A DNA stretch of 64,000 nucleotides from Patescibacteria group bacterium (GTDB lineage: Bacteria; Patescibacteriota; Patescibacteriia; UBA10025; JAHIVO01), in assembly GCA_041650915.1 (NCBI GenBank), contig JBAZKE010000001.1:315284-379283 (forward strand), in the 5' to 3' direction. The notes under the pieces were generated by a model that did not search any database, was not told where the DNA came from, and saw nothing but the letters and a program-made list of their open reading frames with translations. The position numbers and the translations under genes were made by a program. Shown in pieces: positions 3,661-50,040 of this stretch; the first letter of the stretch is position 1; each line of letters begins with the position of its first letter.

Positions 3661-3683
3661 TTAACTTTACTTTTCATAATCAT

Positions 3684-4495: not shown

Positions 4496-4513
4496 GTGAA
4501 AAGCATTTGAGGA

Positions 4514-6001: not shown

Positions 6002-6573
6002 ATGGTTATGCTGTTAATAATAATTACGATAAGCGAGGCGAGTGCGAACGCCATGTCTTCGCGGAGCCGCGCCATGGTGCGGGAGAATGCCACTTTGCAG
6101 CTCGCAGCTGATTTTCCCGTAATCTCTGCGATCTCGCGGTAGCTCAGCTGGTCCCACAGCTTCATGACAACGATCTCCCGGTGCTCGCGCTGAATCGTTG
6201 CGAGGTACTGCCTGACCGCATCGAGGCTGCGTTTCGCATCCAGGTCAACCGGGATTTCCCGGCCGTCATGCAGCCCGTACGCTCCGTCGATGCCCTCGAC
6301 GTTTTTTGCCGTACGGTAGTGGTCGATAACGCCGTTGCGTGCGATCCGGTACAGCCACGACGAGAAGGAGCCACGCGCGCTGTCAAAACGCGGCAGCGCT
6401 TCCATCGCCTTCATGAACGCCTGGCTCGTCAGGTCCTCGGCTGTTTCCCGGTGCATCGTTTTGTAGTAGATGAACCGGTAGATTTTATCCGCATAGCGGT
6501 CGTACAGTCGGGCGAACTGGCCCATATCCCCGCGCTGGCACTTTTTTATGATGTCTTTTTCGTCCATACGCAC
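5998..6573 (-). CDS. ECF-type RNA polymerase sigma factor (sigma-70 region 2 and region 4)
   Basis: Region 2-like RIARNGVIDHYR. Region 4 HTH LSYREIAEITGKSAASCKVAFSRTMARLRE. 191 aa. Confidence 0.85.
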   Translation of the reverse strand: MRMDEKDIIKKCQRGDMGQFARLYDRYADKIYRFIYYKTMHRETAEDLTSQAFMKAMEALPRFDSARGSFSSWLYRIARNGVIDHYRTAKNVEGIDGAYGLHDGREIPVDLDAKRSLDAVRQYLATIQREHREIVVMKLWDQLSYREIAEITGKSAASCKVAFSRTMARLREDMAFALASLIVIIINSITI

Positions 6574-6913
6574 TTATGAACTTCCTATACCTATATAACG
6601 AATGCGAAGCGAAAAGGTAACACTACCGTAATTGTACCACGCCTGCCAATGGAGCAAATGCTCAAATTGCAGCGGCAGTTGGTGGCCTGCGGGAGCTGAT
6701 GTAATCTTTTAGCACGCCTGGCGCGCTTGATCGTGCTTTTGGAAGGGGCACTCTATGCATCTGCTGTTTTTTGGGCGGGTTCAAAAAACGCTTCCCAAGC
6801 CCACCATGCGTGTTCTGCCGTGACCACAGTGCGGCCATGAATCAGGGAAGATTGGTGCTGTTCAGCACCGAGCATCGCTGTTTTGCAAACACTGCCCGGG
6901 ATTTTTCCGCTAC

Positions 6914-6952
6914 AAAAAAAACCGAGGTTCCTGAACAGGGAACCTCGTTTTT
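6914..6952. terminator. Orphan bidirectional intrinsic terminator in the sigma/giant-gene divergent intergenic region
   Basis: aaaaaaaaCCGAGGTTCC-tgaacag-GGAACCTCGttttt. Perfect 9-bp GC-rich stem with an A-run and a T-run. Confidence 0.7.
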
Positions 6953-7080
6953 AATCAATGCTTGTGGGATTGCTCTTGTATGGCAGTCGGGCCGTAGGCC
7001 GATATAAATTTACTAGGACTTACAACAAAAATGGAGTAAGCGGGCATGCTTGGCATGTGCACATCTTCCAGGTTTATAGA

Positions 7081-7109
7081 TTGACAAAAGCCAATTTTCC
7101 CGCTATAAT
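7081..7109 (+). promoter_or_regulatory. Consensus sigma-70 promoter for the giant surface-protein gene
   Basis: TTGACA (7081-7086), 17-nt spacer, TATAAT (7104-7109). Lies about 175 nt upstream of the ATG at 7285. The leader ends in an AT-rich tract. Confidence 0.5.
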
Positions 7110-7284
7110 AACGGCATACTACAAAAACACAAACCAGCCATAGGTTGAGCCGGTAAGGCCTATTGCCTATTATGGTATTTGGCGGGGAAATTCATTATGG
7201 GTTAGGAAGCGGCGCAGTGGACTGACAGCGAGCGCTGAGGTTTTTTTAATATTTTTTATATTTAATCAACGAATAAATCCGCGT

Positions 7285-10200: not shown

Positions 10201-12276
10201 AAAGACCTTACCCTGCTCGAAACCGACATCACTATTCCGGCTGCCGAGACGGCTACCTTCGATTCCACGGTCGCTAAAATCATCAAGCTGACGGACGGGA
10301 CCGAGCTTAATATGCCGGCATACAGCATAGCGACGGAAGGGAACGTAACGGTGACGGCAACGCCAAAAGCGCAGGTCGCTTCAACCGCTGCGGCAAAGCC
10401 GATTGCGCTGGCGTATGATTTCGTTGCGAAGAATGAGCAAAACCAGACGATTTCCACGTTCAACAGCAGCGTAACGGTCAAGATCCCGTACACTCAGGCC
10501 CAGCTTGATGCGCTTGGCATCACGGAAGAGGATATCGTGCCGATGTATTACGATGAAGCGTCTGGCACCTGGAAAACGGTGGATAATGTCGTGGTTGATG
10601 CGGAGAATGACTTTATCATTTTTACCGTAGACCACTTCACCAGCTTCGCGATCGTCACGCACCAGGTAGCGATGCAGGCCGATGGCGATGAGGACCACCT
10701 ATCAATCACCATTACGAAACCGGCGACGGACATGACGGTGTACGCGCCGTTAGTAACGGTCGAGGGCACCGTGTCAGATGCCGATGCATCCCTCGCCGTA
10801 AGCGTTAACGACGGGACGGCAGATGACGTCACTGTCGGCGCTGATGGCACATTCACGAGCACGGTGCAGCTCCAGCCTGGTGTCAATACCGTTGCGTTTG
10901 AAGCGACAAGCGGAGGCGGGACAGCAGGAACCTCATTCATTATCACGTACCTGACCAGCATTGATCCGAACGCTGATCCCTCCACCGTTGCAACTGGCGC
11001 AGAGCGAAGCATCGCCGCGATGCCGGTTAACGGGGGCCCGCAGGTGCGCGTCTATGATGCCGAAGGCAACCTCACCGCATCCTTCTTCGCGTACAACAGC
11101 GCTCTGCGCGGCGAATTTGGCGTAGTGACGGCTGACATCAACGGGGACGGAACATGGGAAATCATAACCTATCCGAAAGAAGGCTTTCCCGGCCACGTGC
11201 GTGGGTTTGACCTCGAAGGCAATTTACTCGGCGACTTTTTCGCATACCAAGCGGAGTACCGGGGTGGCATCAGCGTGAACGCGGCGGATGTGAATGGCGA
11301 TGGCAATGCGGATCTCGTGGTTACGCCCGTTGTCGGTTCGAATGTTCGCGTGTACACGTTCAATACGGACGAGGATGCGTTTGAGCTTCTGGACTGGGAA
11401 ATGGCGTATGGCGACGCCTTCCGCGGGAACATGAGTGTCGCGGTAGGGGATATTGACGCCAACGGCACGGCGGAGATCGCCGTAGCTCCCGTTTCCGCGG
11501 GCGGCCCGAACGTACGGGTGTATGCGTATAACGCATCCATTGAGCAGCTCGAACTTTCCGACTGGTTTATGGCGTACGATGAATCGTACCGCGGCGGCGT
11601 GAACGTCTCGCTCGCGAATGTTACGGGCGATGGCGCGAAAGAACTCGTGGTTGCCCCGGCTTCCGCGGGCGGCCCGAACGTACGGGTGTACGGGTATGCC
11701 GACGGTACCTATGAGCTCGTTGGCTGGTTTATGGCGTACGACGCAACGTACCGCGGCGGCGTGAATCTGCGGTGCTCTGACGTTGATGCGGACGGACTGT
11801 ATGACATCATTACGACCCCGACCAACGGGTCAACGAACGTCCGGATTTTCACCGAGAATGAAACCGCAGACGGTTTTGAGCTGCTCGACTGGTTTTTCGC
11901 CTACGGTGCTGATTCTCGCGGCGGAGCGGCCATTTCCATTGCAAACATGGATGGCGACCTGTATCCCGAAATCGTGACTGTCCCGTCTTTCGGCGGCCCG
12001 AACGTTCGCGCCTATGAATATGATCCGGATGCCGGCGGGATTGCGCTTCTCGATTGGGGCATGGCATATGCAGAAGACTACCGCGGCTCGCTTAATGTTT
12101 CCGTTGCGGATTTTGACGGTGACGGCACCTCCGAGCTCGTTATTGCGCCGGCTGCAAATGGCGGCCCGAATGTCAGGATATTCTCGCTTGTTGACGGTTC
12201 ATTGACGCTAGACGCGTGGTTTATGGGATTTGCCGAAACCTTCCGCGGCGGCGTAGTAACCGCTTCAGTGTTGTAG
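7285..12276 (+). CDS. Giant secreted surface protein with about 10 carboxypeptidase-regulatory-like (Ig/transthyretin-fold) domains, Big-like domains and a C-terminal 8-blade FG-GAP/VCBS-type beta-propeller
   Basis: 1663 aa with a signal peptide. Repeated G-x-V-x-x-x-D/NG-x-P-x-x-x-A-x-V modules. C-terminal 56-aa repeats GGPNVRVY...DWFMAYD..YRGG..V...D..GDG..E.V.AP. Confidence 0.8.
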   Translation: MRVRKIAKLINAAVAVLTIFGMLGPFSMGGALVASAAGTATVIGVVTEPDGVTPVVGAYVNTHTSSYGEYTSVWTDSNGAFSISDVTSGSKILEVNAYDSVYPNPPMLTITVPTSGTLDVGVLRLKNPNVSGVVMKADGVTPVSGAWVSVHDGNWTFSQSDSTGEDGAFGFYLSSTGTYTIEVSASDPDEVAPAAQNFTFTAGGTKTFTGASALKMTVPGMRGKIIMPNGTDPAQYVSVNVHDNSYSYQNSEWVTTDTSGIFKTKSLATGSYTLDVNASSAGNGLIAPDSITVSLTAGTTNTEYFDDPIQLIQAQKTIQGTVRKPNGAKVTDATVSAWPMGGGNGYASAQTNSQGQYSMLVGTGKWQVMVSPQWSGDVPPSWGYYDMPETVTFTKANTVAESGTADFEVSSFDATIRGRVLMPNGSAAGQSDANVSAWSPGGMGGGNNANLDANGYFSLPVPAGTYQLEIMPFNNGLYGAPELDLVTVASGGNLNLGTLRLLEKNEFVTGKIVDSNGTPLENQNVNAWKPSGWGWGWATTDENGEYTLGLTSGTWFIDAMPSGGMGGGEGDSEITYVKSGAPQKVVLSLGETESNINFEFTIADATINGTVQDSEGTVLTDLYSWIEATDVNRTWSSEGDMGGCSGLGGQVQGGSFAMKVPQGTYVMNLFMPWGSDYTAASQESVTVGAGETYDGAVVTVLPNNATITGSLLDQDGNPITDVWGEVFADNGMGGNQWAQFEDGTYTLRVAAGAWHIGYWIDPMSGYLSNPGSDNTVTAAADETTTYDLTLLKADSTIAGTVVDPDGNPISNAWVSADTELGGRQSTADQSMFFGPMFNQGNITDENGAFSFDVPEGTYFVSASLPPSEGYINPKAQQVAVSPDSPADVALEFRIADGTISGTVTLDGEPNASYVWGWSEEGGASETTTVDGAYSLNVIKDETWHIGAIYETTTTFYRSDENIIDVPSSGTATKDLTLLETDITIPAAETATFDSTVAKIIKLTDGTELNMPAYSIATEGNVTVTATPKAQVASTAAAKPIALAYDFVAKNEQNQTISTFNSSVTVKIPYTQAQLDALGITEEDIVPMYYDEASGTWKTVDNVVVDAENDFIIFTVDHFTSFAIVTHQVAMQADGDEDHLSITITKPATDMTVYAPLVTVEGTVSDADASLAVSVNDGTADDVTVGADGTFTSTVQLQPGVNTVAFEATSGGGTAGTSFIITYLTSIDPNADPSTVATGAERSIAAMPVNGGPQVRVYDAEGNLTASFFAYNSALRGEFGVVTADINGDGTWEIITYPKEGFPGHVRGFDLEGNLLGDFFAYQAEYRGGISVNAADVNGDGNADLVVTPVVGSNVRVYTFNTDEDAFELLDWEMAYGDAFRGNMSVAVGDIDANGTAEIAVAPVSAGGPNVRVYAYNASIEQLELSDWFMAYDESYRGGVNVSLANVTGDGAKELVVAPASAGGPNVRVYGYADGTYELVGWFMAYDATYRGGVNLRCSDVDADGLYDIITTPTNGSTNVRIFTENETADGFELLDWFFAYGADSRGGAAISIANMDGDLYPEIVTVPSFGGPNVRAYEYDPDAGGIALLDWGMAYAEDYRGSLNVSVADFDGDGTSELVIAPAANGGPNVRIFSLVDGSLTLDAWFMGFAETFRGGVVTASVL
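11020..12240 (+). repeat. Intragenic tandem DNA repeats (period 168 nt, about 8 units) encoding the FG-GAP blades
   Basis: The unit ttccgcgggcggcccgaacgtacgggtgta recurs at 11493 and 11661. Neighbouring units are near-identical (gactggtttatggcgtacga...cgcggcggcgtgaa). Confidence 0.8.
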
Positions 12277-12366: not shown

Positions 12367-13431
12367 ATGAAAAAAACAGTTGCCATTATCGTTGTAGTTA
12401 TTATGATGTTGGCAGTTGCTGGTGGAGCGTACTGGTTCGGCACGCGGTCGGAAACTGATGATAAAAATACAAATGTGGCAGTAACAAACGCAAACCATGC
12501 GAATTTGAATACGAATACGGCAGCATTGACCAATGCCTCTGCACCCAATGTCACCTACGAAACGTATTCAAATCATGGGACTTTGTACACGTTTGACGTC
12601 GTGTCCGAGTGGACCAGCATCGCGCCGGCCGAAGTCCAGAAATCCATCACCGAGGAGCAGCGCCACGGGTATGAGATCGTGTACTTTTCTTCCAATCCAG
12701 ACTCAGTTGTTCTCGCTGTATCCGAAAAGGCGTCTGCCACCTTGGCAACCATGCCGGCCATTACCGCCGACGATAAATCCGTAGCTCAGGCCAATCCGAA
12801 CGTTACGATCGTGGACGAACGCGTCAACCAGGCGGACGCGCAGACCGAGATGACCGTCCGGTCCGGCGACAGCACCTATACCGTATATTCCCGCTACCTC
12901 ATCATTTCCGCTGCCGGCAGCGAGACTCGCTGGGCGCTCATGGAGGTGACGGTTCCCTCGAGCCGGGCCGCGCAGTACGGTGCCGCCGCAGCCCATTTGC
13001 TCGATTCCTTGCAGATCGCCGGGTCGAACGCGAACACTGGCCAAGCCGGCGATGCCGGAGGTTTCAGCGCAGCGGGCGAGAAGATCAACGAGCTTGCCTA
13101 CCGCCAGAATTTTTCTGCGATTGATCTCTGCTCACTGAAGAAAGACGCCAGCCCGGAGACGGCACGGGCCGGCATTGCCAGCTTGGATTATGAAACCGAG
13201 CAGCTTTCGTACAGGGTCGTCACGACCAACGCCATTACCGAACAGACCACCCTGACGCTTAAAACGTACGACTACGCAGCCGGCCAGGTTTTTGCCGGCG
13301 AACAGCAGCTGGACGTCATGCCCGGCACCAACAGCTTATGCTGCTTTTCCGCGCCAGGCACCGGCCGGTACCAGTACCTATTCTACTACGGCACTGACCT
13401 GGTCAAGGCGCTTGAACTCAGCTCAGAGTAG
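12367..13431 (+). CDS. Membrane-anchored extracytoplasmic protein (N-terminal TM, Asn/Thr-rich linker), paralogue 1
   Basis: 354 aa. TM IIVVVIMMLAVAGGAYWF. C-terminal motif GTNSLCCFSAPGTGRYQY shared with the next gene. Confidence 0.6.
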   Translation: MKKTVAIIVVVIMMLAVAGGAYWFGTRSETDDKNTNVAVTNANHANLNTNTAALTNASAPNVTYETYSNHGTLYTFDVVSEWTSIAPAEVQKSITEEQRHGYEIVYFSSNPDSVVLAVSEKASATLATMPAITADDKSVAQANPNVTIVDERVNQADAQTEMTVRSGDSTYTVYSRYLIISAAGSETRWALMEVTVPSSRAAQYGAAAAHLLDSLQIAGSNANTGQAGDAGGFSAAGEKINELAYRQNFSAIDLCSLKKDASPETARAGIASLDYETEQLSYRVVTTNAITEQTTLTLKTYDYAAGQVFAGEQQLDVMPGTNSLCCFSAPGTGRYQYLFYYGTDLVKALELSSE

Positions 13432-15148: not shown

Positions 15149-15269
15149 TTTCGCATTCATCAAAACAGCCGAGCGGCGCGGATTGCGGTAAAAAAAAGAC
15201 GCACTGGGGGTTTTAATCCCAGTGCGTGTTTGCGGAACGAACGTAGTAGGCGTGTTTCAGGCTGCGCCG

Positions 15270-16787
15270 CTACACATGGTACAGCGGGAAGTACTTTTCC
15301 TCCATATACTGCTCCCAGTACTTCGGATTGAGTCCCTCGCCGGTGGCGCGCGTCAGGACATTATCCATGGACTCGAAGTGCCCGGTTGCGTGGACGTTTT
15401 TGCGGAGCCACTCCAAGAGTGCGGAGAAGTTGCCCTGCCTAAACTGGTCTTCCCAGTCCGGGTGGGCGATCGCGAATGCGGCAAAGAGCTGGCCCGAAGC
15501 GAGGTTTCCGAACGTGTACGTCGGAAAATAGCCGAAGTACCCCGACGGGAAGTGGACATCCTGGAGGATGCCTTCCGCGGGAGTAGCCGGCCGGTACCCA
15601 ACAAACTGGAGCACCTGCTCGTTGAAGAAGTCGGGGGCGTCATCGACCGACAGATCGCCGCTCAGGAGCGCGAGCTCGGTTATGAACCGGGCGAGGATAT
15701 GGCCATTGTACGTAGCCTCGTCAGCCTCGACCCGTATCGGGCTCGGCTTCACCGCATTGATCGCGAGGTAGAACTCACCGACCGTGGATCCGTAGAATCC
15801 CGGAAACGACATCTGGAGATGGCGGAACCAGTATTCCCAGAACGGCTTGGACCGGCAGACGAGGTTCTCGTACATGCGCGATTGCGACTCGTGGATGCCG
15901 AGCGACAGGAACAGGCACGCATTGTCGACGGGCCACATTTCAGCGGGCGCGCCCTGCTCGTACATCGCGTGGCCGGCCTCGTGCGGCGTGCCGAACAGCG
16001 CCGCCCGGAGGTCATTCTCGTAGTACCGGGTCGTGATGCGGTGGTCGCCGGAGCTGATCGTTGCCATAAACGGATGCGTCGTTTCCGACAGGTTACCGCG
16101 CGCAAAGTCGTAGCCGAGCGCACGGACGATCGCTTCGACGAGACGCCGTTGCCGCCCTTTCGGAAAGCATCCGGTGAGCAGCGCGGCATTCGGTTTCACC
16201 GTGGACTGCAGTATGCGCTGCATGAATCTCGCCTGCCACCCCTTGACCTGGTCGAGTATCGCGCGGGCCTGCGCCGTGGTCATGCCCGGTTCGAAACCGC
16301 CGAGCAGCTGGTCGTACAGCGAGTCGGCGTTGCCGGGTTCTCCGCCGTGCAGTTCGGCTTCTTCGCGCATCACCGCGAGCACCTCGGCGAGGTGGGGTTT
16401 GAACATGCCGTAGTCCCCGAGTTTCCGAGCTTTGACCCACGTGGCGATCGCAGCTTCGGTGGTAGCCTTCTTGCGGCCCACGAATTCAGAGGGGAGCGCT
16501 TTCGCGCGGTCGTAGCTCGCCTTAAGGCGGCTGACCTGGAGCTGCTGGTACGGCGTGAGCTCACCGATGATGCCGAGGCACGCTTCGATGGCGGCACCGA
16601 CTTCGTCGGCTATGAACGCTGCGTGTGCCTTCTTCCCTGTGCGGCCGGCGAGCCCTGTGCGATACTCTTCGGCGTCCGGCGGCCGGTTTGTTCTGCCGTC
16701 CCACTCAAGGATGTGAGCGATGTTTCCGAGATCGTTCGCTTCCTGAAGTGCGGCGAGCAGTTTGTCAAATAGCGGATGGTTTGCCAC
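15270..16787 (-). CDS. M32-family carboxypeptidase (carboxypeptidase Taq-like zinc metallopeptidase)
   Basis: HEAGHAMYEQG HExxH zinc motif plus the family-specific GIHESQSRMYEN (HESQS) motif. 505 aa. Confidence 0.85.
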   Translation of the reverse strand: MANHPLFDKLLAALQEANDLGNIAHILEWDGRTNRPPDAEEYRTGLAGRTGKKAHAAFIADEVGAAIEACLGIIGELTPYQQLQVSRLKASYDRAKALPSEFVGRKKATTEAAIATWVKARKLGDYGMFKPHLAEVLAVMREEAELHGGEPGNADSLYDQLLGGFEPGMTTAQARAILDQVKGWQARFMQRILQSTVKPNAALLTGCFPKGRQRRLVEAIVRALGYDFARGNLSETTHPFMATISSGDHRITTRYYENDLRAALFGTPHEAGHAMYEQGAPAEMWPVDNACLFLSLGIHESQSRMYENLVCRSKPFWEYWFRHLQMSFPGFYGSTVGEFYLAINAVKPSPIRVEADEATYNGHILARFITELALLSGDLSVDDAPDFFNEQVLQFVGYRPATPAEGILQDVHFPSGYFGYFPTYTFGNLASGQLFAAFAIAHPDWEDQFRQGNFSALLEWLRKNVHATGHFESMDNVLTRATGEGLNPKYWEQYMEEKYFPLYHV

Positions 16788-17157: not shown

Positions 17158-18414
17158 ATGAAAAAATCAATCTACATCACCATCGCGGTTGTCATTGCGG
17201 TTATCGCCATCGCAGGCATTCTGCGTTTCGTGGTCGGCGGAGATGAAGACACGTGGATATGCGAAAACGGCGCATGGGTCAAACACGGCAATCCGGATGC
17301 AGCAAAGCCGACAACTTCGTGCTCCGGTTCAACCAGCAATGCGAATACAACTAAAAACACGAATGACAAAAGTACGGTAACGCCGGCTGAGGAATTGGAA
17401 CAGGTTGCGCTTGCGAACAAGTTTGGCTGGCTCGGCGCCGGCGAGGACGGCACTGACATGGATTTTATCAGGCAGTCCGGCGCTGGGTGGATGCGGCCGC
17501 ATCCGGGCCCGTTCGTCTGGGATATGCTTCAGCCATCCGCAACGGCGGAATACGATTACACGAAAATGGATGAACTGGTTGCGCTTACGCAGTCGTATGG
17601 TTTGAATTTGCTGATCACCATCTGGCCGTTTGCTGAATGGGACCAGGCACAGAGGGCTGATGCGGCAGACTGTGCGGTGTCTTCTGAGGATGAGTTTTTA
17701 TTAGCAAATGACAAGAAGGGCAGGCCGTCATATCTGCCCTTGCACCGCTGCAATCCGAATGACTGGACTGCGTATGAACGGCTCGTCGTTGCGGTCGTGG
17801 AGCGGTATGACGGCGACGGTACTGACGACATGGATGGTTTGCGGTACCCGATCAAGCATTGGGAAGTGCTGAACGAGCCGGACCTCGGCACTTCAGACCA
17901 GCTGACGTTCTATAAAGAAGGGCCGGAAGCGTACGCTGAGCTTCTGCGGAAGACCATGTCCGCAATCAAGAACGCGGACGAGACGGCGAATGTCCTCATC
18001 GCGGGCGCGGCAGGCACGGATGATCGTTTCCTCAATTTTTACCGGACGATGTTCACGAACGTTCTTGAATCCCGGTTGCTATTCGAGATCGGCAACGTTC
18101 ACTGCATTTCAAACGACAAGAATACCCTCGACTTTAATGTTGCTGACTACCGGGCTATGCTCGCGGAGTTTGAGATTGACGCGCCGGTGTGGGTAACGGA
18201 AGCCGAGCAAATGGGCGCGGAGGGGTTCACGCAAAACGTCGAACAAACCCAAACAAGCGTGGACAACGCGCTATCAGCCGGAGCGCAGAAAATCTTTTTT
18301 ACGCGGTATGATTTAGCGGATACGCGCACTGACATGAGCGAAATCCAGGAAGGCACCGAGGATTCGGCAACACAAAGCATGGAAGCGTACCAGGAAATCA
18401 TCTCGGGAGGATAA
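17158..18414 (+). CDS. Membrane-anchored putative glycoside hydrolase, clan GH-A (GH5/GH39-like)
   Basis: N-terminal TM. WEVLNEPD matches the clan GH-A catalytic NEP motif. A later TEAEQ is a candidate nucleophile. Confidence 0.5.
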   Translation: MKKSIYITIAVVIAVIAIAGILRFVVGGDEDTWICENGAWVKHGNPDAAKPTTSCSGSTSNANTTKNTNDKSTVTPAEELEQVALANKFGWLGAGEDGTDMDFIRQSGAGWMRPHPGPFVWDMLQPSATAEYDYTKMDELVALTQSYGLNLLITIWPFAEWDQAQRADAADCAVSSEDEFLLANDKKGRPSYLPLHRCNPNDWTAYERLVVAVVERYDGDGTDDMDGLRYPIKHWEVLNEPDLGTSDQLTFYKEGPEAYAELLRKTMSAIKNADETANVLIAGAAGTDDRFLNFYRTMFTNVLESRLLFEIGNVHCISNDKNTLDFNVADYRAMLAEFEIDAPVWVTEAEQMGAEGFTQNVEQTQTSVDNALSAGAQKIFFTRYDLADTRTDMSEIQEGTEDSATQSMEAYQEIISGG

Positions 18415-39988: not shown

Positions 39989-40270
39989 ATGTACTGCGTC
40001 TATATCATTACGAATAAACGGAAGAATGTGCTTTACACCGGCGTGACGAGCAATATCGTTGGCCGCGTTCGCCAGCACAAGAATAAGGTGCTTCCCGGTT
40101 TTACCAGCAAATACCGCGTACAGCACCTCGTCTACTATGAGGAGTACCAATACGTGTATGATGCCATCGCACGGGAGAAACAGATCAAGGGCTGGCGTCG
40201 TTCGAAAAAGGAGACATTGATCAGGCAATTGAATCCGTCATGGAGTGATTTGAGTGTTGGCTGGCACTAA
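39989..40270 (+). CDS. Small GIY-YIG nuclease-family protein (copy 2)
   Basis: MYCVYIITNKRKNVLYTGVTSNIVGRVRQHK... Same 5' flank (CCCCAAATAACTTTTGGGGATTTTATG) as copy 1. Confidence 0.85.
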   Translation: MYCVYIITNKRKNVLYTGVTSNIVGRVRQHKNKVLPGFTSKYRVQHLVYYEEYQYVYDAIAREKQIKGWRRSKKETLIRQLNPSWSDLSVGWH

Positions 40271-40271
40271 T

Positions 40272-40390
40272 GCTTGTCATCGCAAGCCCCCCACGTTTGT
40301 CATCCCGACCCGCCAATGGGCGGGGAGGGATCTCGGTAAAGAACACTATGCCAGTAACAGAGATGCTTCGACTTCGCTCAGCATGACAAG
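40272..40390. repeat. GIY-YIG-associated hairpin/repeat cluster (copy 2)
   Basis: cttgtcat ... atgacaag outer arms. cgtttgtcatcccg motif. Inner cccgcc/ggcggg hairpin. Confidence 0.65.
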
Positions 40391-40466
40391 GGTTGTTTTT
40401 GTTGCTTGCGTAATTGTTGGTGGGGGGTAGAATGAGGGTGCACATTAAATTTTATATTTACGAAAT

Positions 40467-40940
40467 ATGAAAATTCAAAAAAGTACAAGGCACTCAAAAA
40501 TAACTGGAAATTTTTGTGAAAGTGTCATTTTATATTGGTTATCAAAATATGGATTTGAGTGCGCAAACGTAGATCATACGGGCATTGATATTATTGCTCG
40601 TAATCCTCATACAAAGGAGGTTATGGGAATTTCAGTAAAAGGCAGAAGTAGAAATGAAGGAAAAGAAAAGACTTATGTCAGCATCCCAAATGATAATTTT
40701 GATAAAATTAGAAGGGCGTGTAAAGCGTTTAATTGTGTTCCATATTTTGCAATAGTTGTTGATGAAAAAGATAGAATATACTCATTCATTGTATCAATGG
40801 GGCATTTATTAAAATTATTTCCAGAAGGTAATCGCGTATGTGCGTGGAAAATGACAGAAAAACATATCGCACGATACAAGCAAGACTCCGAAATAATGTT
40901 TTTTGAATTTGATTATAAGACACTGAATTGGTGGGAATAA
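40467..40940 (+). CDS. Low-GC orphan protein with an Hjc/YraN-like PD-(D/E)XK restriction-endonuclease-fold N-terminal domain
   Basis: ESVILYWLSKYGFECANVDHTGIDIIARNPHTKEVMGISVKG follows the E...GxD(hhA)...hhhh(E/S)xK pattern of Holliday-junction-resolvase-like nucleases. The C-terminal 80 aa are unknown. Confidence 0.45.
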   Translation: MKIQKSTRHSKITGNFCESVILYWLSKYGFECANVDHTGIDIIARNPHTKEVMGISVKGRSRNEGKEKTYVSIPNDNFDKIRRACKAFNCVPYFAIVVDEKDRIYSFIVSMGHLLKLFPEGNRVCAWKMTEKHIARYKQDSEIMFFEFDYKTLNWWE

Positions 40941-40960
40941 ATTATTTTTACGATTGAAGT

Positions 40961-41641
40961 ATGCGAGAGCGTTTAACTATTATCGTTGCATTAACCTGCT
41001 GCGTGGTTTTATCTGGTTGTGCTATTCAGCAGACAAACGGTAATTCATCCACTAGCGTTAATACCAACTTCCCTGTCAACACCAACGCCACGCCAGTTGT
41101 AAATTCGAACACGAATACAGTGATCAATGCCACGCCAGTGGTAAAGGAGTTTATCTCACCGCTTGATAAGCCGGCGGAACGCATTACGAAAAAGCCGTTT
41201 GGCATTTACATCACGCCCACGGCGTCACCGGTTCAGCCGGAGAGGTTTTCTGGTTTTCACACCGGCGTGGATTTTGAAATTTTGGCAGGTGAGGAAGATA
41301 GTGACGTAGCAGTTACGGCAGGGTGCAGTGGTACGGTTCGAGATAAACAGCGGGTGAGTGGGTACGGCGGTGTGCTGGTGCAGGATTGCGTTTTAGCCGG
41401 CGAAAACGTAACTGTTTTGTACGGCCATTTGAATTTGGATAGCATAACCATTTCAGTGGGTGATACGCTGCATCAGGGGGATTTGATAGGCAATCTTGGC
41501 ACGGGGTATAGTACCCAGACGGATAATGAGCGCAAGCATTTGCATGTGTCGGTACACAAAGGAACGGGCGTAAATTACAAAGGATATGTGAGTTTAGAAT
41601 CAGCGCTTGAGGATTGGATCGACCCGCAGGAATATTTTTAA
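40961..41641 (+). CDS. M23-family (LytM-like) metallopeptidase lipoprotein
   Basis: Lipobox VLSGC. HTGVDF (HxxxD) and KHLHVSVH (HxH) zinc motifs. Confidence 0.75.
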   Translation: MRERLTIIVALTCCVVLSGCAIQQTNGNSSTSVNTNFPVNTNATPVVNSNTNTVINATPVVKEFISPLDKPAERITKKPFGIYITPTASPVQPERFSGFHTGVDFEILAGEEDSDVAVTAGCSGTVRDKQRVSGYGGVLVQDCVLAGENVTVLYGHLNLDSITISVGDTLHQGDLIGNLGTGYSTQTDNERKHLHVSVHKGTGVNYKGYVSLESALEDWIDPQEYF

Positions 41642-42071: not shown

Positions 42072-42198
42072 AAAAATAGCTTACATTAGCCAAAAAAAAT
42101 ACTACTTAAAATACTTGCGGCAGGGGTAAAAATATGCTAAAATGCGGGTAGGTTGGAACCTACTTTTTTAATACTTTTCCACCGCCTGTTAGCTACTT

Positions 42199-42582
42199 AT
42201 GTCGCTCAAGAAGTACCTCATCGTGATGACAACGGCTACGCTCGTATGCTGGGTCGCGTGGCTCGTTGTGCTCTATTATATCAATCCCATGGAAGCAGGA
42301 TTTGTCGGTTTTACCCTGTTTTACCTCACGCTGCTCATCGCGCTCATCGGCACGTTTTCGCTCATCGGATTTTTTGGCAGGGTGTGGTTTTCGAAAGAGC
42401 GGGTCATTTTCCGGCACCTCGGCATTTCCACCCGCCAGTCAATGTGGTTTTCGTTTCTGCTGATTGGGACACTCATCCTGCAGGGGACTGATTTTCTGCG
42501 CTGGTGGAGCGTGCTCCTCCTCATCGTGCTGCTCACCTTGCTCGAGTTTTTCTTTTTATCCAGGAAGGTCATGCGCCGGTAG
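42199..42582 (+). CDS. Integral membrane protein (4 TM)
   Basis: Hydrophobic 127-aa ORF immediately upstream of pheS. Confidence 0.45.
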   Translation: MSLKKYLIVMTTATLVCWVAWLVVLYYINPMEAGFVGFTLFYLTLLIALIGTFSLIGFFGRVWFSKERVIFRHLGISTRQSMWFSFLLIGTLILQGTDFLRWWSVLLLIVLLTLLEFFFLSRKVMRR

Positions 42583-42587
42583 CAAAT

Positions 42588-43598
42588 ATGGAAGACGAAA
42601 TAAAGAAAATCCAGAAAGAAGCCCGCGCGAAGCTCGCAGCAGTTAAAAACCAAGCTGAACTCCGTGATTTTGAGGTTCTGTACCTCGGCCGCAAGGGCGA
42701 GCTCACCACTGTCTTGCGCCAGCTCAAGGGCTTGTCCGATATCCAGAAGCGGATGATCGGTACGGTCGCGAATAAGGCCAAGGGCGAGCTGGTGGCGGCA
42801 TTTGAGAAGAAGCGAAGCGAGCTCGAACAGACAGCCTCCGCATCGCTGACCACACTCGAGGCAACCTGGCCTGGAGCGGTTGAAAGCGCGGGGCGCCTCC
42901 ACCCGATTACGCAGTTCTTGCAGCGCGTCGAAGATATTTTCATCTCGATGGGATTTGAGGTTATTGACGGGCCGGAAGTCGAAACACCGCGGTACAACTT
43001 TGATCTGCTCAACATTCCCAAAGACCATCCGGCTCGGGATATGTGGGATACGTACTACGTCGAGCAAGGCCTTGTCCTGAGAACCCATACGTCTCCGGTC
43101 CAGCTCCGCGCGATGGAAAAACGCAAACCGCCCGTCAGATTGATTGCGCCCGGCAGGGTATTCCGTCATGAGGCGACCGACGCAGGACACGAAACGACAT
43201 TTTACCAGTGTGAGGGGCTTGTCATCGACCGGTGCATCACGGTGGCAAATCTGATACAGACCGTCGACCAGTTCCTGAAGGCGGTATTCGGCCCGCAGGT
43301 AAAGACCCGCGTCAGGCCAGAGCTGTACCCGTTCGTAGAGCCTGGCATTGATTTTGACATGCGGTGCTTGATCTGCGGCGGGGCGGGATGCTCGGTATGC
43401 AAGCAACGCGGCTGGCTCGAGACGCTCGGATCGGGCATGGTGCATCCGAAGGTGCTCAGGAACATGGGCGTTGACCCTGAGCAGTATTCCGGATTCGCGT
43501 TCGGGCTCGGCATTGACCGGCTCATGATGCTGCGCCACGGCATCAATGATATCCGACTGTCGTACAGCGGTGACTTTAGATTTTTAGAGCAGTTTTAA
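42588..43598 (+). CDS. pheS: Phenylalanine--tRNA ligase alpha subunit
   Basis: FRHEATDAGHETTFYQCEGLVID and GFAFGLGIDRLMML class II motifs. Start trimmed to the ATG at 42588 (MEDEIKKIQ...). Confidence 0.92.
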   Translation: MEDEIKKIQKEARAKLAAVKNQAELRDFEVLYLGRKGELTTVLRQLKGLSDIQKRMIGTVANKAKGELVAAFEKKRSELEQTASASLTTLEATWPGAVESAGRLHPITQFLQRVEDIFISMGFEVIDGPEVETPRYNFDLLNIPKDHPARDMWDTYYVEQGLVLRTHTSPVQLRAMEKRKPPVRLIAPGRVFRHEATDAGHETTFYQCEGLVIDRCITVANLIQTVDQFLKAVFGPQVKTRVRPELYPFVEPGIDFDMRCLICGGAGCSVCKQRGWLETLGSGMVHPKVLRNMGVDPEQYSGFAFGLGIDRLMMLRHGINDIRLSYSGDFRFLEQF

Positions 43599-43601
43599 TC
43601 T

Positions 43602-44600
43602 ATGGCAAAGCAACTTCCGAAATTTCTAGCAAACGTTTACGTCAACATCCGCGAGAGCAACGATCAGCTTCAACGCGAGTTTCTCGAGTGCCTGAAGAAT
43701 CGGGAAATCATTTCGAAGTTTTCGTACTGGGGCGAGGAGCCGACGCAGGCGTGGCTGCGGTTTTGCCGCGCTGCCGAGTACAAGACGTATCCGCAGGGAG
43801 TCTCTCTGCTGCGGAAGGTAAGCGCGGATATCGCCGATCGCGTGGGCGCTTCACGGGTTAACTACATAAGCCTCGGTGTCGGCAACGGCGAGAAGGACGC
43901 GATACTGCTGCAGTGGTTATATAAAACCTCGCGGCTGATACGGTATTACCCAATCGACATCTCGACCGACATGATCAAGGCGGGTTTGAATCACGTGTTC
44001 GCCCACTTTCGGAACTTGCCGACCACTGCGTTTGTGACCGATTTCAAGATTCTGGACGAGATCGCGCAGGCCGAGACGTTCCGTAGGGATCGCAACTTTT
44101 TCAGCCTCCTCGGGAATACGATGGGTAACTTCAACCAGGTGTCGCTGCTGAATATACTTCGGCACAGCCTGGATCGGAACGACTATTTGCTCGTCGGCGT
44201 CTCGACACGCCGGGAGCGGAGCCAGGAGACGAAGGCTGACGTTAACCGCATCATCAGAAGCTATAGCAACAAGGCGTCGAAGGAGTTTGCCTACAGCCCC
44301 CTGAAGAAGGCGGGTATCAAGAAATCCGACGGCGTGGTTGACGTCGAGTTCAACCGCGACCCGCTCTACCCGCGCCTCAACCGGGTCGATCTGTTCTTCT
44401 GCTTCCGCAAGAACAAAACGGCACACTACTGTGGCCAGGAGATCGTGTACCGGAAGGGGGAACGTATCCTGCTGTATTTTTCCGAGAAGTATTACCCGGA
44501 CGACCTCACGTTTCTGTTTCAGGATAATGGGTTCCGTATCGTCAAATTTTATCAGAATACAGAGCAGAGCTACGCAAAAATACTCTGCCGATTGAAATAG
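43602..44600 (+). CDS. EgtD-like SAM-dependent methyltransferase (Methyltransf_33 / histidine N-alpha-methyltransferase fold), inserted between pheS and pheT
   Basis: YISLGVGNGEKDAILLQWL...YYPIDIS...FFSLLGNTMGNF...LLVGVS parallels the EgtD signature blocks (LVELGSGss.K...YvPvDIS...FLGSTIGNf...LLlGvD). Confidence 0.5.
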   Translation: MAKQLPKFLANVYVNIRESNDQLQREFLECLKNREIISKFSYWGEEPTQAWLRFCRAAEYKTYPQGVSLLRKVSADIADRVGASRVNYISLGVGNGEKDAILLQWLYKTSRLIRYYPIDISTDMIKAGLNHVFAHFRNLPTTAFVTDFKILDEIAQAETFRRDRNFFSLLGNTMGNFNQVSLLNILRHSLDRNDYLLVGVSTRRERSQETKADVNRIIRSYSNKASKEFAYSPLKKAGIKKSDGVVDVEFNRDPLYPRLNRVDLFFCFRKNKTAHYCGQEIVYRKGERILLYFSEKYYPDDLTFLFQDNGFRIVKFYQNTEQSYAKILCRLK

Positions 44601-44601
44601 T

Positions 44602-46956
44602 ATGTATCTTTCCCTCAACTGGCTTAAAGAATTTGTCAAATTCCAGCAAACACCGGAAAAGGTTGCGGAGATTTTTACGCTCGGCGGATTTGAGGTTGAG
44701 CAGGCGGTGCATCACGGAGCCCATCTCGACGGGATCGTCGTCGGGCAGATCAAGACGATCGTCAACCACGCTGAGGCCGACAAGCTCTCGGTATGCAGGG
44801 TGGACGTCGGCCGCAAGGAGCCGCTCACGATCGTATGCGGCGCCCGCAATATCAAGCCCGCCCAGCACGTTCCCGTAGCGCTCGTCGGCGCGGTCCTGCC
44901 CGGCGGCATGAAGATCGAACGGCGCCGCATCCGCGGGATCGATTCTGAGGGCATGCTGTGCGCCGAGGATGAGCTCGGCTTGGGTGATGACCACTCCGGC
45001 ATCATGATTCTGGATAAGAGCATCCGTGTCGGCGCGAAGTTTACGCAAGCGATCAAGCTCGATGATACTGTGCTTGATATTTCGGTTGCGCCGAACAGGC
45101 CGGACGGTTTCTCGGTACTCGGGCTCGCGCGCGAATTTGCGGCACTGTCGGGCCAGAAGCTCATGCGAAAAAAGGTAAACGTGCCGGAGAGTGCGAAGTT
45201 CAATATCAAGAAGCTGCTTGCGGTTTCAGTCAAGGATTATGAGCTGTGCCCGCGGTATGTCGCGCGCGTCGTTAAGAACGTGAAGGTCGGGCCGTCGCCG
45301 CTGTGGCTGCAGTCACGGCTGCGGGTGTGCGGCGTGAAGCCGATCAACAACATCGTCGATAGCACCAACTACGTCATGCTCGAGTACGGCCAGCCGCTCC
45401 ATGCATTCGATCTCGCGAATGTCAGCGGCAAGAAGGTTACCGTGCGCAAAGCGGGCACGGATACCCTGTTCCAGACGCTCGATGGCGAACGGCGCACGCT
45501 TCCATCCGATGCGCTCGTGATCGCCGACGCGCAGAAGCCGATCGCCGTTGCGGGCGTTATGGGCGGCGAGAATTCTGAGATTACCAAGCAGACGAAGGAC
45601 GTTGTCATCGAGTCGGCGATTTTTAAGCCTCTATCCATTCGCAAGACGCGCCAGAAGCTCGGAATCGTAACCGAGGCGTCGGCACGGTTTGAGAAAGGCA
45701 TCTGGTGGGATCTGCCTGAGGAAGCGGCGGACCGGGCGGCGCAGCTTATGCACGATCTCGCCGGCGGCGAGATCGCGAGCGGCACGATCGTCGCTTCAAA
45801 AGAAAAGGGGAGAAAGCCGACGGTTATTTTACTTGAAGCTGATTACGTCAGCAAGCATATTGGGAAGACTTTTACGGAAGCGGATATTGCGAAGAAGCTG
45901 TCGCAGCTTCAGTTCCAGGTCGTAAAGAAGAAAAAGGGTGTGCTTGCGGTCACCGTACCGTCGTGGCGCCAGGACGTCTCGATCCCAGCCGACCTCATTG
46001 AAGAAGTGGGGCGGATGTCCGGATGGAATAAGCTCACGCCGTCGCCGGTATACGGGGCGCTGCAGCCCGTGCTCGTGCCTCCCGAAAAGCATTGGGAGCG
46101 GGTTATCAAAGATGCGCTCGTTTCTGCCAGCATGCAGGAAATGCTCAATTACTCGTTCTACGGCGAGCGGCTCATCAGCCAGTTTGGATTGAAGGAAAAA
46201 GACCACTATCGGGTTACGAATCCCCTTAATCCTGACCAGCAGTACCTCCGTACAACGCTGCTGCCGCAGCTCTATGAGAACGTGGTCAAAAATAGCCGGG
46301 AGCGTGATTCAGTCAGGGTATTTGAAGTTGGGAACGTGTTTATCCGTAGCGGGAGTCCAATGCCCAAGGAGGTTATGCGGATCGCTGGGATCGTGTACGC
46401 TAGAAAGTCACAGGGCGGCGGTTCGGCACTTATGGCTGCGATCAAGGCGGTTCTCGGCATGCTTTTTGCCCGGATGCATATCCAGGAGGGGGCGGTCCGG
46501 TTTGAAGCGTTAAACGGCAATGCAGGTTCGGGTAATATTATAATCAGCGGAAAAACAGTTGGCTGCTACGGCCTGCTCTCTGTGGGAGTCAAAAAGCTCG
46601 ACCAAGCGCCCGCGTGGTTTGGATTAACCCTTTCGAAACTCGTACAACATGCGAAGCATGCGCCTCAGTATGAGGAGATCAGCGCATACCCCGCCATTGA
46701 ACGGGACAGTACGTTCTGGACCCCGGACTGCACGCGGTACGATGATATCGTGCAGACGGTCCGGTCAGTCGATCCGCTCATCGCCGGCGTACGGGGCCTC
46801 GGCCTCTTTACGGCAGGTGACGGGAGGGTAAGCGCGACGATCAGGGTTACGTACCGGTCAGCAGAACGGACGCTGACTGCCGAGGAGGCGGGATCAATCG
46901 AGCAGAAGGTTATTGGCACCTTGCAGGAAAAACTAAACATGGAGTTCAAGAAGTAA
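44602..46956 (+). CDS. pheT: Phenylalanine--tRNA ligase beta subunit
   Basis: N-terminal tRNA-binding domain (GIVVGQIKTIVNHAEADKLSVCRVDVG), B3/4 and B5 domains, C-terminal FDX-ACB. 784 aa. Confidence 0.92.
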   Translation: MYLSLNWLKEFVKFQQTPEKVAEIFTLGGFEVEQAVHHGAHLDGIVVGQIKTIVNHAEADKLSVCRVDVGRKEPLTIVCGARNIKPAQHVPVALVGAVLPGGMKIERRRIRGIDSEGMLCAEDELGLGDDHSGIMILDKSIRVGAKFTQAIKLDDTVLDISVAPNRPDGFSVLGLAREFAALSGQKLMRKKVNVPESAKFNIKKLLAVSVKDYELCPRYVARVVKNVKVGPSPLWLQSRLRVCGVKPINNIVDSTNYVMLEYGQPLHAFDLANVSGKKVTVRKAGTDTLFQTLDGERRTLPSDALVIADAQKPIAVAGVMGGENSEITKQTKDVVIESAIFKPLSIRKTRQKLGIVTEASARFEKGIWWDLPEEAADRAAQLMHDLAGGEIASGTIVASKEKGRKPTVILLEADYVSKHIGKTFTEADIAKKLSQLQFQVVKKKKGVLAVTVPSWRQDVSIPADLIEEVGRMSGWNKLTPSPVYGALQPVLVPPEKHWERVIKDALVSASMQEMLNYSFYGERLISQFGLKEKDHYRVTNPLNPDQQYLRTTLLPQLYENVVKNSRERDSVRVFEVGNVFIRSGSPMPKEVMRIAGIVYARKSQGGGSALMAAIKAVLGMLFARMHIQEGAVRFEALNGNAGSGNIIISGKTVGCYGLLSVGVKKLDQAPAWFGLTLSKLVQHAKHAPQYEEISAYPAIERDSTFWTPDCTRYDDIVQTVRSVDPLIAGVRGLGLFTAGDGRVSATIRVTYRSAERTLTAEEAGSIEQKVIGTLQEKLNMEFKK

Positions 46957-46959
46957 AAA

Positions 46960-47940
46960 ATGTTCATAGAAATTTTACTTTTTATCATTGGCATCGGGCT
47001 GCTCTACTATGGCGCGAACATGCTCGTGAAGAACAGTTCGTGGCTTGCGAAGAGCGTTGGCGTATCGCCGCTCATCATCGGGATGACGGTCGTTGCGTTT
47101 GGCACGTCTGCACCGGAGCTGCTTGTCAGTACGATCGCATCAATAGAGCACAATAGCGCAATCGCGTTCGGCAACATTATCGGCAGCAACATTGCGAATA
47201 TCGGGCTCGTGCTCGGCCTCGTCGTGCTCATCTGGCCTCCCAAGTCAGAGGAGAGGGCGGTCCGCCGGGAGTTTCCATTCTTGGTGCTCATTTCACTCCT
47301 CCTCATCGTACTGTGCAGCGACGGCATGCTCGGGAGGGTTGACGGTTTTGTACTGATCGTGCTGTTCTCCCTGTTTTTATACTACAACATCATCACGGTG
47401 CGGCGGAAAATGCTCGATAAGTTTAAGCACGAGGTCGAGGAATTTGGCGATAAGCTCGAAGGGGTTATCGAGCATAGGCGGTTCGAGCGGAAACGCGTTC
47501 TGAAGAATCTCGCCTTTGCCATCGTAGGTCTCGCGATACTGCTCCTCGGTTCGAAGCTCCTCGTTGACAGTGCGATAGCGATTGCCCGCGTGGCCGGCAT
47601 CAGCCAGATGGTGATCGGCCTGTCGCTCGTGGCAGTCGGCACGTCGCTCCCGGAACTCTTCACGTCGGTTATCGCCTCGATCAAGAAGGAAGAGCAGATT
47701 AACGTCGGCATGATTCTCGGGAGCAACATCTTCAATACGCTGTTTATTCTGGGAGTTGCCGCAATGATCCTGCCGATTCCGGTCACGCGCCAAGACTTCA
47801 TCGTCAGTATGCCGGTTATGCTGCTCTTCATATTGTCTGTGTTTCCGATCCTCAAGGAAAATATCAGGACGTATCGGCTGTTTGGGCTTTTCCTGTTACT
47901 CGGGTATTTTACATTCATCATTTATTCATTTATTCGCTAA
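46960..47940 (+). CDS. Ca2+/cation antiporter (CaCA family, YrbG-like)
   Basis: Two alpha-repeats, GTSAPELLVS and GTSLPELFTSV. Confidence 0.85.
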   Translation: MFIEILLFIIGIGLLYYGANMLVKNSSWLAKSVGVSPLIIGMTVVAFGTSAPELLVSTIASIEHNSAIAFGNIIGSNIANIGLVLGLVVLIWPPKSEERAVRREFPFLVLISLLLIVLCSDGMLGRVDGFVLIVLFSLFLYYNIITVRRKMLDKFKHEVEEFGDKLEGVIEHRRFERKRVLKNLAFAIVGLAILLLGSKLLVDSAIAIARVAGISQMVIGLSLVAVGTSLPELFTSVIASIKKEEQINVGMILGSNIFNTLFILGVAAMILPIPVTRQDFIVSMPVMLLFILSVFPILKENIRTYRLFGLFLLLGYFTFIIYSFIR

Positions 47941-47958
47941 CGCCATTAAGGAAAATAG

Positions 47959-50040
<2,082 letters not shown>

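Follow-up and report, generated by a model that had tools for sequence, protein, structure and literature searches.

The closest described relative of the gene analyzed here encodes EgtD, the L-histidine N-alpha-trimethyltransferase (PDB 4PIM/4PIN/4PIO, 4UY5-7, 7SCF), in which the carboxylate of L-His is held by Tyr56, Tyr206 and Ser284, the alpha-amine by Asn166, and the imidazole via a Thr213-positioned water, with Glu282 as a further key residue (PMC8593015). An engineered variant of this enzyme, M252V/E282A (PDB 4PIP), has been retargeted to tryptophan, that is, the loss of Glu282 combined with a change of Met252 shifts the scaffold off histidine. The same Pfam family, Methyltransf_33 (PF10017), includes EasF, a dimethylallyl-tryptophan N-methyltransferase of fungal secondary metabolism. 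Natural aromatic amino-acid betaine synthases, with Trp and Tyr as substrates, also exist within the EgtD family. A described arrangement of a different kind is relevant as well: in the rel-dtd-hisS-aspS genes of Firmicutes, the gene for a long RelA/SpoT homolog (RSH) is followed directly by one for a small-molecule or tRNA-related enzyme, with aminoacyl-tRNA synthetase genes nearby. Here, we describe a predicted S-adenosylmethionine (SAM)-dependent methyltransferase of the EgtD fold (hereafter MT) that is encoded between pheS and pheT, the genes for the two subunits of phenylalanine-tRNA ligase (PheRS), in a Patescibacteria group bacterium, a member of the candidate phyla radiation (CPR). The analyzed stretch, 'the window' below, consists of 64 kb of a ~680-kb contig (GCA_041650915.1, JBAZKE010000001.1, positions 315,284 to 379,283). 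We hold with moderate confidence that MT is a SAM-dependent alpha-N-methyltransferase for a non-histidine free amino acid, probably ancestrally coupled to RSH and relocated into the PheRS operon.

The core of the locus consists of the following features.

42588..43598, + strand: pheS, phenylalanine-tRNA ligase alpha subunit, 336 aa (TIGR00468, 292 bits, cut-off 237)
43599..43601, + strand: 3-nt spacer tct, between the pheS stop TAA (43596-43598) and the ATG of MT (from the sequence)
43602..44600, + strand: MT, predicted EgtD-fold Methyltransf_33 SAM-dependent methyltransferase, 332 aa, ATG start, TAG stop at 44598-44600 (open reading frame, profile and model)
44602..46956, + strand: pheT, phenylalanine-tRNA ligase beta subunit, 784 aa (TIGR00472, 693 bits, cut-off 403)

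The MT protein matches the Methyltransf_33 profile over positions 3-303 of 304 (E=1.1e-34, 120.4 bits against a cut-off of 23) and contains the motifs YYPIDIS (residues 115-121), FFSLLGNTMGNF (166-177) and LLVGVS (196-201). In the AlphaFold2 model (mean pLDDT 94.7, pTM 0.92, from a 73-sequence alignment), the two-domain architecture typical of EgtD, with a Rossmann methyltransferase domain and a substrate-binding domain, is complete. The best 15 matches of this model in a Foldseek comparison with the PDB are all EgtD chains (TM 0.78-0.86, rmsd 2.4-3.8 Å, ~340 columns, 17-19% identity), followed by other folds at TM of ~0.4-0.5, with CcbJ at ~0.4. The score for the EgtD equivalog model TIGR03438, 100.4 bits, is below the cut-off of 290.9, and so is that for TIGR03439 (EasF), 84.9 bits against 205.55. 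The match to EasF is thus full-length but weak, and unlike for that fungal enzyme, there is no ergot-type context at the MT locus. Altogether, the sequence and the model of the open reading frame (ORF) predict a functional EgtD-fold N-methyltransferase that depends on SAM.

To map EgtD residues onto MT, phmmer and hmmsearch alignments to PDB chains were combined with a MAFFT alignment, and 14 core members of the MT subfamily were compared (below, L-numbers denote related loci and P-numbers related proteins). The relevant sites in MT are:

43872..43898, + strand: SAM-binding motif I, LGVGNGEKD, residues 91-99 (Gly92 and Gly94 are the equivalents of EgtD Gly86 and Gly88), invariant in the subfamily
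43956..43958, + strand: Asp119 of the PIDIS motif, aligned with EgtD Asp113, which is the acidic residue ending Rossmann strand 2; invariant (role presumed from the class I methyltransferase architecture)
44112..44129, + strand: GNTMGN, residues 171-176, in which Gly171, Thr173 and Asn176 align with EgtD Gly161, Thr163 and Asn166
44262..44264, + strand: Tyr221, aligned with EgtD Tyr206 (alpha-carboxylate binding)
44283..44285, + strand: Glu228, at the position of EgtD Thr213, the holder of the imidazole-bound water; variable in the subfamily (E/D/K/N/S)
44475..44489, + strand: YFSEK, residues 292-296, with Tyr292 aligned with Glu282, Ser294 with Ser284 (carboxylate binding), and a conserved Lys296

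The equivalents of the alpha-carboxylate triad are all present (Tyr60 for Tyr56, Tyr221 for Tyr206, Ser294 for Ser284), the SAM motifs LGVGNGEKD, PIDIS and TDF are intact (Gly92, Gly94, Asp119, Asp147 and Phe148), and the backbone-binding and SAM-binding residues are invariant across the 14 core members. In contrast, the residues that select histidine are replaced in MT, with Tyr292 for Glu282, Glu228 for Thr213 and Leu264 for Met252. Position 282 is occupied by Tyr in 13 of the 14 members and by Leu in L005, positions 213 and 252 are variable, and Glu278 of EgtD corresponds to an invariant Arg; furthermore, the N-terminal YD..GS.LF of EgtD gives way to FSYWG....W. As in the engineered EgtD, positions 252 and 282 are both of a non-histidine type, but position 282 of MT carries the bulky Tyr rather than a small residue, and an acidic residue is found at position 213. 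The mapping shows that MT is not an EgtD equivalog, with the site for the amino-acid backbone kept and the histidine site lost. MT would then methylate the alpha-amine of a non-histidine free L-amino acid, or of a very similar small alpha-amino acid, and thereby yield an N-methylated or betaine-type compound unrelated to ergothioneine. A preliminary description of this DNA had recognized an EgtD/Methyltransf_33 signature in this gene and proposed a small-molecule (betaine-type) or protein N-methyltransferase. The signature is confirmed by the three motifs, the Pfam match and the superposition of the model on EgtD, and activity on a small molecule fits because the residues expected to hold the alpha-carboxylate and the alpha-amine are conserved; the histidine-binding residues, to which that description looked for the substrate, are replaced, so that the substrate is predicted not to be histidine.

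The MT subfamily is small. A word-indexed search of 5.8 billion proteins retrieved, besides MT itself, only three relatives, with 79%, 72% and 41% identity. When 1.84 billion representatives were searched exhaustively with a profile, 3597 family members were found, only 75 of these at E<=1e-30. The group with 36-42% identity to MT, identified in GTDB genomes and JGI metagenomes, comes from Peregrinibacteria, Peribacteria, Gracilibacteria and unclassified Patescibacteria, and by these searches, the subfamily is confined to Patescibacteria. Its signature consists of FSYWG...W, LGxGNGxKD, GNTxGN, GERIL.Y.S.KY and the Arg at the Glu278 equivalent, and all these elements are present in the MT of the window, which shares 36-41% identity with the RSH-linked members.

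The genomic context of most of these relatives is an RSH gene. In ~10 independent loci of the Peregrinibacteria/Gracilibacteria type, MT is located 10-26 nt downstream of a gene for a long RSH with the HD_4, RelA_SpoT, TGS and ACT_4 domains. The RSH-MT loci are:

L004:2788-8984, RSH-MT in two tandem pairs (2788-5704 and 6079-8984)
L017:4054-6984, RSH-MT
L022:4026-6945, RSH-MT
L010:4049-6972, RSH-MT
L011:4025-6758, RSH-MT
L009:3295-6155, RSH-MT
L018:1-2213, RSH-MT
L021:736-3605, RSH-MT
L023:1-2090, RSH-MT
L026:48-2365, RSH-MT

A single pair is found in each of L008/L021, L009/L024, L010, L011, L017, L018/L026, L022 and L023, and L007 and L020 contain C-terminal remnants of an RSH upstream of MT at the contig edge; L019 is the only one of these loci without an RSH, in the 1 kb available. 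No RSH is encoded in the 64-kb window, where MT follows pheS instead, and the MTs of the window, L001 and L005 have no visible RSH neighbor. No fusions of MT with RSH or PheRS were detected among 20 long family members scanned. An alignment of the MT-linked RSHs shows intact hydrolase signatures (HP...; LLHD-x-x-EDT; DRLHN) and degenerate synthetase signatures, with the GRxKxxYSIxxK and D...R motifs lost and the catalytic Glu of E-x-Q often lost as well, so the partners of MT look like hydrolase-only RSHs. The tandem pairs of L004 stand out in that RSH1 has intact synthetase motifs and lacks the ED of the hydrolase HD..ED motif, whereas RSH2 shows the reverse, a combination resembling, at the level of motifs, the split between RelA and SpoT. 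The MT that follows RSH1 (L004a) has lost the equivalents of Asn166, Ser284 and Lys286, whereas the one following RSH2 keeps them. In L010, L018 and L022, the RSH is flanked by a second protein of 565-572 aa in which Methyltransf_33 is preceded by an N-terminal region of ~250 aa; this region has no Pfam match and no homologue among the proteins fetched.

L022:2278-3975, 565-572-aa MT paralog
L010:2259-3956, 565-572-aa MT paralog
L018:2267-3985, 565-572-aa MT paralog

In a neighbor-joining tree, the three pheT-linked proteins are the sister group of one RSH-linked clade, inside the RSH-linked radiation. This nesting suggests that the linkage to RSH is ancestral and the position next to the PheRS genes derived. 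The order of genes is reminiscent of the Firmicute rel-dtd-hisS-aspS arrangement, but the likeness is one of gene context only because Dtd is a D-aminoacyl-tRNA deacylase with an unrelated fold.

The position of MT between the PheRS genes is rare and changeable. MT is found at the pheT side in three genomes only, those of the window, L001 and L005. In L001 (GCA_028718605.1; MT 79% identical), the order is M23 peptidase-DciA-membrane protein-pheS-MT-pheT-gyrB, and the gaps around MT are 7 nt and 1 nt; in L005 (MT 72% identical), MT is followed by a 102-aa ORF and then pheT. With PheT as the probe, the nearest relative of the window is L028 (PheT 75%, PheS 81% identical), in which pheS and pheT are adjacent, with a 6-nt gap and no MT. 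In L029, L030 and L031 (PheT 55-58%), the junction is filled by an unannotated acidic ORF of 137-144 aa that is homologous to the 102-aa ORF of L005 (about 30% identity). The order DciA-membrane protein-pheS-...-pheT-Na/Ca exchanger-gyrB-secE-nusG-rplK is common to all these genomes.

L029:3146-3562, acidic junction ORF
L030:4504-4917, acidic junction ORF
L031:4554-4988, acidic junction ORF
L005:1115-1423, acidic junction ORF (the four ORFs, of 102-144 aa, share an LG..E..LW.FFKKY-like motif and have no Pfam match)

Because the junction is empty in L028 and carries an unrelated ORF in L029-L031, the space between pheS and pheT is a variable slot in this clade, which can be empty or contain the small ORF, MT with the small ORF, or MT alone. 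Proteins with 48-75% identity to the PheT of the window number in the dozens.

The spacing of the genes is tight on both sides of MT, with 3 nt after pheS, too short for a promoter and with no clear Shine-Dalgarno sequence by eye, and a single t between the MT stop and the ATG of pheT at 44602. However, MT shares this property with its surroundings: the whole same-strand block at 42199-50040, which includes three more listed genes, is packed with gaps of 1-27 nt between all genes, and therefore, the tight spacing of MT is generic here, which argues against a functional tie to PheRS.

42199..42582, + strand: small membrane protein gene, 127 aa, the first gene of the block, with a weak MgtC-like match below the cut-off
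46960-47940, + strand: Na+/Ca2+ exchanger family gene, downstream of pheT, in the same order in L028-L031
47968-50040, + strand: gyrB, the last listed gene of the block, in the same order in L028-L031

Orthologues of the membrane protein, with 72-91% identity, are encoded upstream of pheS in L001, L028, L030 and L031, and a terminator-like hairpin is located at 42146-42165, 5' of the membrane protein gene. The true start of pheS is most likely the ATG at 42588 (MEDEIKK...) and not the GTG at 42504 because the starts of the orthologues (MEDQLKEIQ / MKEQLEQLK) match there; the longest pheS ORF, from the GTG, would overlap the membrane protein gene. In a consensus scan, no sigma-70-like promoter or intrinsic-terminator-like site was detected on the + strand between 42166 and 48678, and in the whole 64-kb window, there is no Rfam match at the gathering threshold to a T-box, leader or other regulatory RNA, and no tRNA gene. 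Co-transcription of pheS, MT and pheT is the natural reading, given the gaps of 3 nt and 1 nt and the absence of internal promoter- or terminator-like sites.

Several claims of the preliminary description can be judged against these findings. The 332-aa gene between pheS and pheT, with gaps of 3 nt and 1 nt, is as described, and its flanks pass the TIGR00468 and TIGR00472 cut-offs; the proposed co-transcription with the PheRS genes stands as the natural reading, too. The suggested functional tie to translation, or to PheRS specifically, is weakened, given that the slot is variable, the spacing generic, and the dominant context of the family is RSH. As for the scenario of a recent local insertion with a degenerate gene, the placement is indeed lineage-restricted, but the gene itself is intact and strongly constrained.

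The constraint is evident from the comparison of the window with L001. The number of nonsynonymous substitutions per site (dN) is lowest for MT (0.159), followed by gyrB (0.180), pheS (0.291) and pheT (0.410), with synonymous sites saturated for every gene, and the amino-acid identities rank in the same order (79% for MT, 76% for GyrB, 63% for PheS, 55% for PheT). In the window, MT has a GC content of 0.54 and a GC content at third codon positions (GC3) of 0.74, compared with 0.57 and about 0.69-0.74, respectively, for its neighbors; because its GC3 equals that of the neighbors, MT is a long-time resident of this genome. By these measures, MT is an old, intact and strongly constrained gene that evolves under purifying selection, rather than a decaying insert. 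A recent horizontal insertion in the window was considered and is ruled out by the match in GC and GC3, the saturation of synonymous sites relative to L001, and the lack of flanking repeats or scars beyond short matches expected by chance. The MT of L001 (L001:6001-6999) is compositionally odd, with GC of 0.42 and GC3 of 0.46, compared with 0.53-0.55 and 0.60-0.63, respectively, for pheS, pheT and gyrB, an anomaly suggesting that this lineage acquired MT from a donor of lower GC content.

Outside the CPR subfamily, the next ring of relatives, with 23-30% identity to MT, includes many fusion proteins, with another domain on the N-terminal side of Methyltransf_33. This other domain is one of the following: Pycsar/CBASS-type TIR, SEFIR/TIR, caspase, CHAT, a trypsin-like protease, a calcineurin-like phosphoesterase (metallophosphatase) or a TrmB helix-turn-helix (HTH) domain.

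P0028, P0031 and P0094: caspase fusions
P0141 and P0097: CHAT fusions
P0099, P0029 and L016:5581-6960: TIR/SEFIR fusions
P0098: trypsin fusion
P0113: metallophosphatase fusion
P0018 and P0154: TrmB HTH fusions

These fusions belong to the same profile-defined branch (E of 1e-26 to 1e-54 with the subfamily profile) and resemble MT in retaining every SAM-binding and backbone-binding residue and in lacking Glu282. Unlike MT, which is a stand-alone domain in a housekeeping operon, they are multidomain proteins from non-CPR phyla with defense-island-like neighborhoods; in particular, the fusion gene of L016 lies among genes for AbiEii-type AAA_21 ATPases and a Schlafen/AlbA_2 protein. Matches to PADLOC-DB are confined to the TIR and caspase parts of these distant relatives, and the MT of the window matches no model in that database. 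The effector-Methyltransf_33 fusions may represent an uncharacterized defense or signaling architecture.

The sequence of events that we favor starts from the usual, and probably ancestral, position of the gene immediately downstream of a long, hydrolase-only-looking RSH gene. In the lineage of the window, the gene would have been relocated into the pheS|pheT junction, a site that accepts different cargo genes in this clade; there, it would be co-transcribed with the PheRS genes and probably translationally coupled to them. Such a placement would provide constitutive, growth-linked expression rather than point to a direct biochemical partnership with PheRS. From the recurring neighbors (RSH genes elsewhere, those of an aminoacyl-tRNA synthetase here), one might suspect that MT has to do with amino-acid or charging-stress physiology.

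Several points weigh against this scenario. Members of the subfamily differ at the side-chain pocket positions (Thr213 and Met252 in EgtD), so the substrate may not be the same for all of them or other residues may define the pocket, and the equivalent of Tyr39 is ambiguous by one residue (Tyr42 in the hidden Markov model alignment, Trp43 in the MAFFT alignment). The hydrolase-only call on the partner RSHs comes from inspection of motifs against those of Rel enzymes, and the neighbor-joining tree carries no support values. Finally, MT is found at the pheT side in three lineages, with 72-79% identity compared with 55% for PheT, so the linkage to PheRS could itself be selected.

The last point leads to an alternative in which MT is a dedicated partner of PheRS that methylates Phe (to N-methyl-Phe or Phe-betaine) or a near-cognate such as Tyr, shaping the PheRS pool, or else modifies PheRS, tRNA-Phe or Phe-tRNA-Phe, with the junction ensuring stoichiometric co-expression. 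Apart from the gaps of 3 nt and 1 nt and the lack of an internal promoter or terminator, this alternative can draw on the recurrence of the placement in L001 (7 nt and 1 nt) and the location of MT upstream of pheT in L005, on the conservation of MT, which between these genomes exceeds that of PheS and PheT, and on the replacement of Glu282 by the aromatic Tyr (Leu in L005) and of Met252 by Leu in the pheT-linked trio, changes at positions known to retarget EgtD to aromatic amino acids because the 4pip variant (M252V/E282A) binds tryptophan. Nevertheless, such a partnership appears unlikely: the closest relative, L028 (PheS 81%, PheT 75%), lacks a gene in the slot, L029-L031 have an unrelated ORF there, only three MT orthologues turned up among 5.8 billion proteins against dozens of PheT proteins at 48-75% identity, and the rest of the subfamily is linked to RSH rather than to PheRS. 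Moreover, the block at 42199-50040 is equally compact throughout and functionally mixed (membrane protein, Na/Ca exchanger, gyrB), and retention of the free-carboxylate triad argues against an aminoacyl-tRNA or protein substrate. The same triad makes it very unlikely that MT is a protein alpha-N-terminal methyltransferase acting on a component of the translation system, such as ribosomal protein L11, given that a peptide would not need the equivalents of Tyr56, Tyr206 and Ser284, which are invariant. In other bacteria, the N-terminus of L11 is trimethylated by PrmA, and L11 is needed for RelA activation; the association of MT with RSH genes and with a translation operon, and the presence, in relatives, of rplK farther downstream in the same gene block, at a distance of a few kb, are circumstantial evidence for a substrate of this kind. 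Still, secE-nusG-rplK is a universal arrangement unrelated to the MT gene, and we know of no Methyltransf_33 member that acts on proteins.

That MT could be a true EgtD producing hercynine, as publicly annotated for this metagenome-assembled genome, is hardly credible, although P0001 and P0002 are named 'L-histidine N(alpha)-methyltransferase' by NCBI and the best NCBIfam and PDB matches are to EgtD. This annotation is probably over-specific because the TIGR03438 score is about one-third of the cut-off (100 vs 291 bits) and the histidine-specifying residues are absent, with Glu282, Thr213 and Met252 all replaced; the identity to EgtD is 17-19%. No EgtB-like gene (FGE-sulfatase/DinB) and no other ergothioneine genes (egtB/egtC/egtE, eanB) were found among the window ORFs scanned, which cover 64 kb of the ~680-kb contig, or in the related loci. 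CPR bacteria generally lack amino-acid biosynthesis (bioRxiv 10.64898/2026.07.13.738296), which also counts against a true EgtD. A further alternative is a ligand-sensing or regulatory module that binds SAM and/or an amino-acid-like signal and controls a partner protein, the copy in the window being an orphan that lost its RSH. This possibility derives from the location of Methyltransf_33 C-terminal to effector domains, the same N-to-C order as that of RSH followed by MT in CPR, from the AbiEii-type AAA_21 and Schlafen/AlbA_2 neighborhood of L016, from the duplication of RSH and MT in tandem as a unit in L004 and the MT-RSH-MT arrangement in L010, L018 and L022, and from the retention of the L004a paralog in spite of the loss of the Asn166, Ser284 and Lys286 equivalents. 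We consider it doubtful, given that the full set of catalytic and binding residues in MT and in all fused domains examined exceeds the needs of a pure sensor, that the MT of the window has no PADLOC match, and that the copies in the window, L001 and L005 are strongly constrained without a visible RSH neighbor; furthermore, sensing and catalysis are compatible, so this alternative overlaps with the RSH-coupled amino-acid methyltransferase that we favor.

If these strands are read jointly, the CPR subfamily of Methyltransf_33 might be an unrecognized accessory of the stringent response, an amino-acid-binding methyltransferase paired with a hydrolase-type long RSH, with the module rewired onto PheRS in the lineage of the window and with the TIR-, caspase-, CHAT- and trypsin-fused relatives employing the same domain as a trigger of conflict or defense effectors. 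This is speculation to which we assign a low probability. Under this scheme, for example, an N-methyl amino acid made or consumed by MT would be sensed by the ACT/TGS region of RSH, so that alarmone turnover would follow the amino-acid and SAM status in bacteria unable to synthesize amino acids, and PheRS would be another reader of the amino-acid and tRNA-charging status.

Elsewhere in the window, the GC content drops sharply (0.33-0.41 compared with ~0.55) at 40250-41000, between the genes for a UvrD/PD-(D/E)xK helicase-nuclease and for the M23 peptidase. This trough holds a 157-aa ORF (40467-40940) with no Pfam match, and a 93-aa ORF just upstream of it (39989-40270) may, by eye, be GIY-YIG nuclease-like. 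The equivalent interval in L001 carries other genes, so this region is another variable spot. A surface-type protein of 1663 aa, containing CarboxypepD_reg and FG-GAP repeats, is encoded at 7285-12276, and the window also has many large ORFs with no Pfam match (e.g. 4517-6001 on the minus strand, 12367-13431, 15222-16772 and 17158-18414). Such ORFs, together with the lack of tRNA and Rfam matches in the window, are typical of CPR dark matter.

The fold of the enzyme is, then, a known one of which it is a divergent member, and its conserved genomic partnership is new. The literature searched contains no account of Methyltransf_33 in CPR, of its linkage to RSH, or of a gene between pheS and pheT, the matches to PF10017 being Plasmodium gene identifiers. 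Histidine and EgtD-type enzymes go unmentioned in a preprint of 2026 on the methyltransferases of CPR. The practical implication is that the capacity for ergothioneine synthesis should not be deduced for CPR genomes from the 'L-histidine N-alpha-methyltransferase' label, which is almost certainly wrong here. Furthermore, within a single CPR clade, no fewer than two unrelated cargo genes have repeatedly come to separate pheS from pheT, whose adjacency is otherwise near-universal, a caution that function should not be read from operon position in compact genomes. Taken alone, the pheS|pheT placement is a lineage-specific curiosity, whereas the RSH-linked CPR clade, along with its effector-fused relatives, is a worthwhile lead. 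The analysis defines a clade of EgtD-fold enzymes that is small, strongly constrained and restricted to CPR, with a predicted non-histidine substrate, and the conserved partner of this clade is an RSH with a hydrolase-only signature; if functional, this link would open the question of how organisms without amino-acid biosynthesis sense the supply of amino acids.

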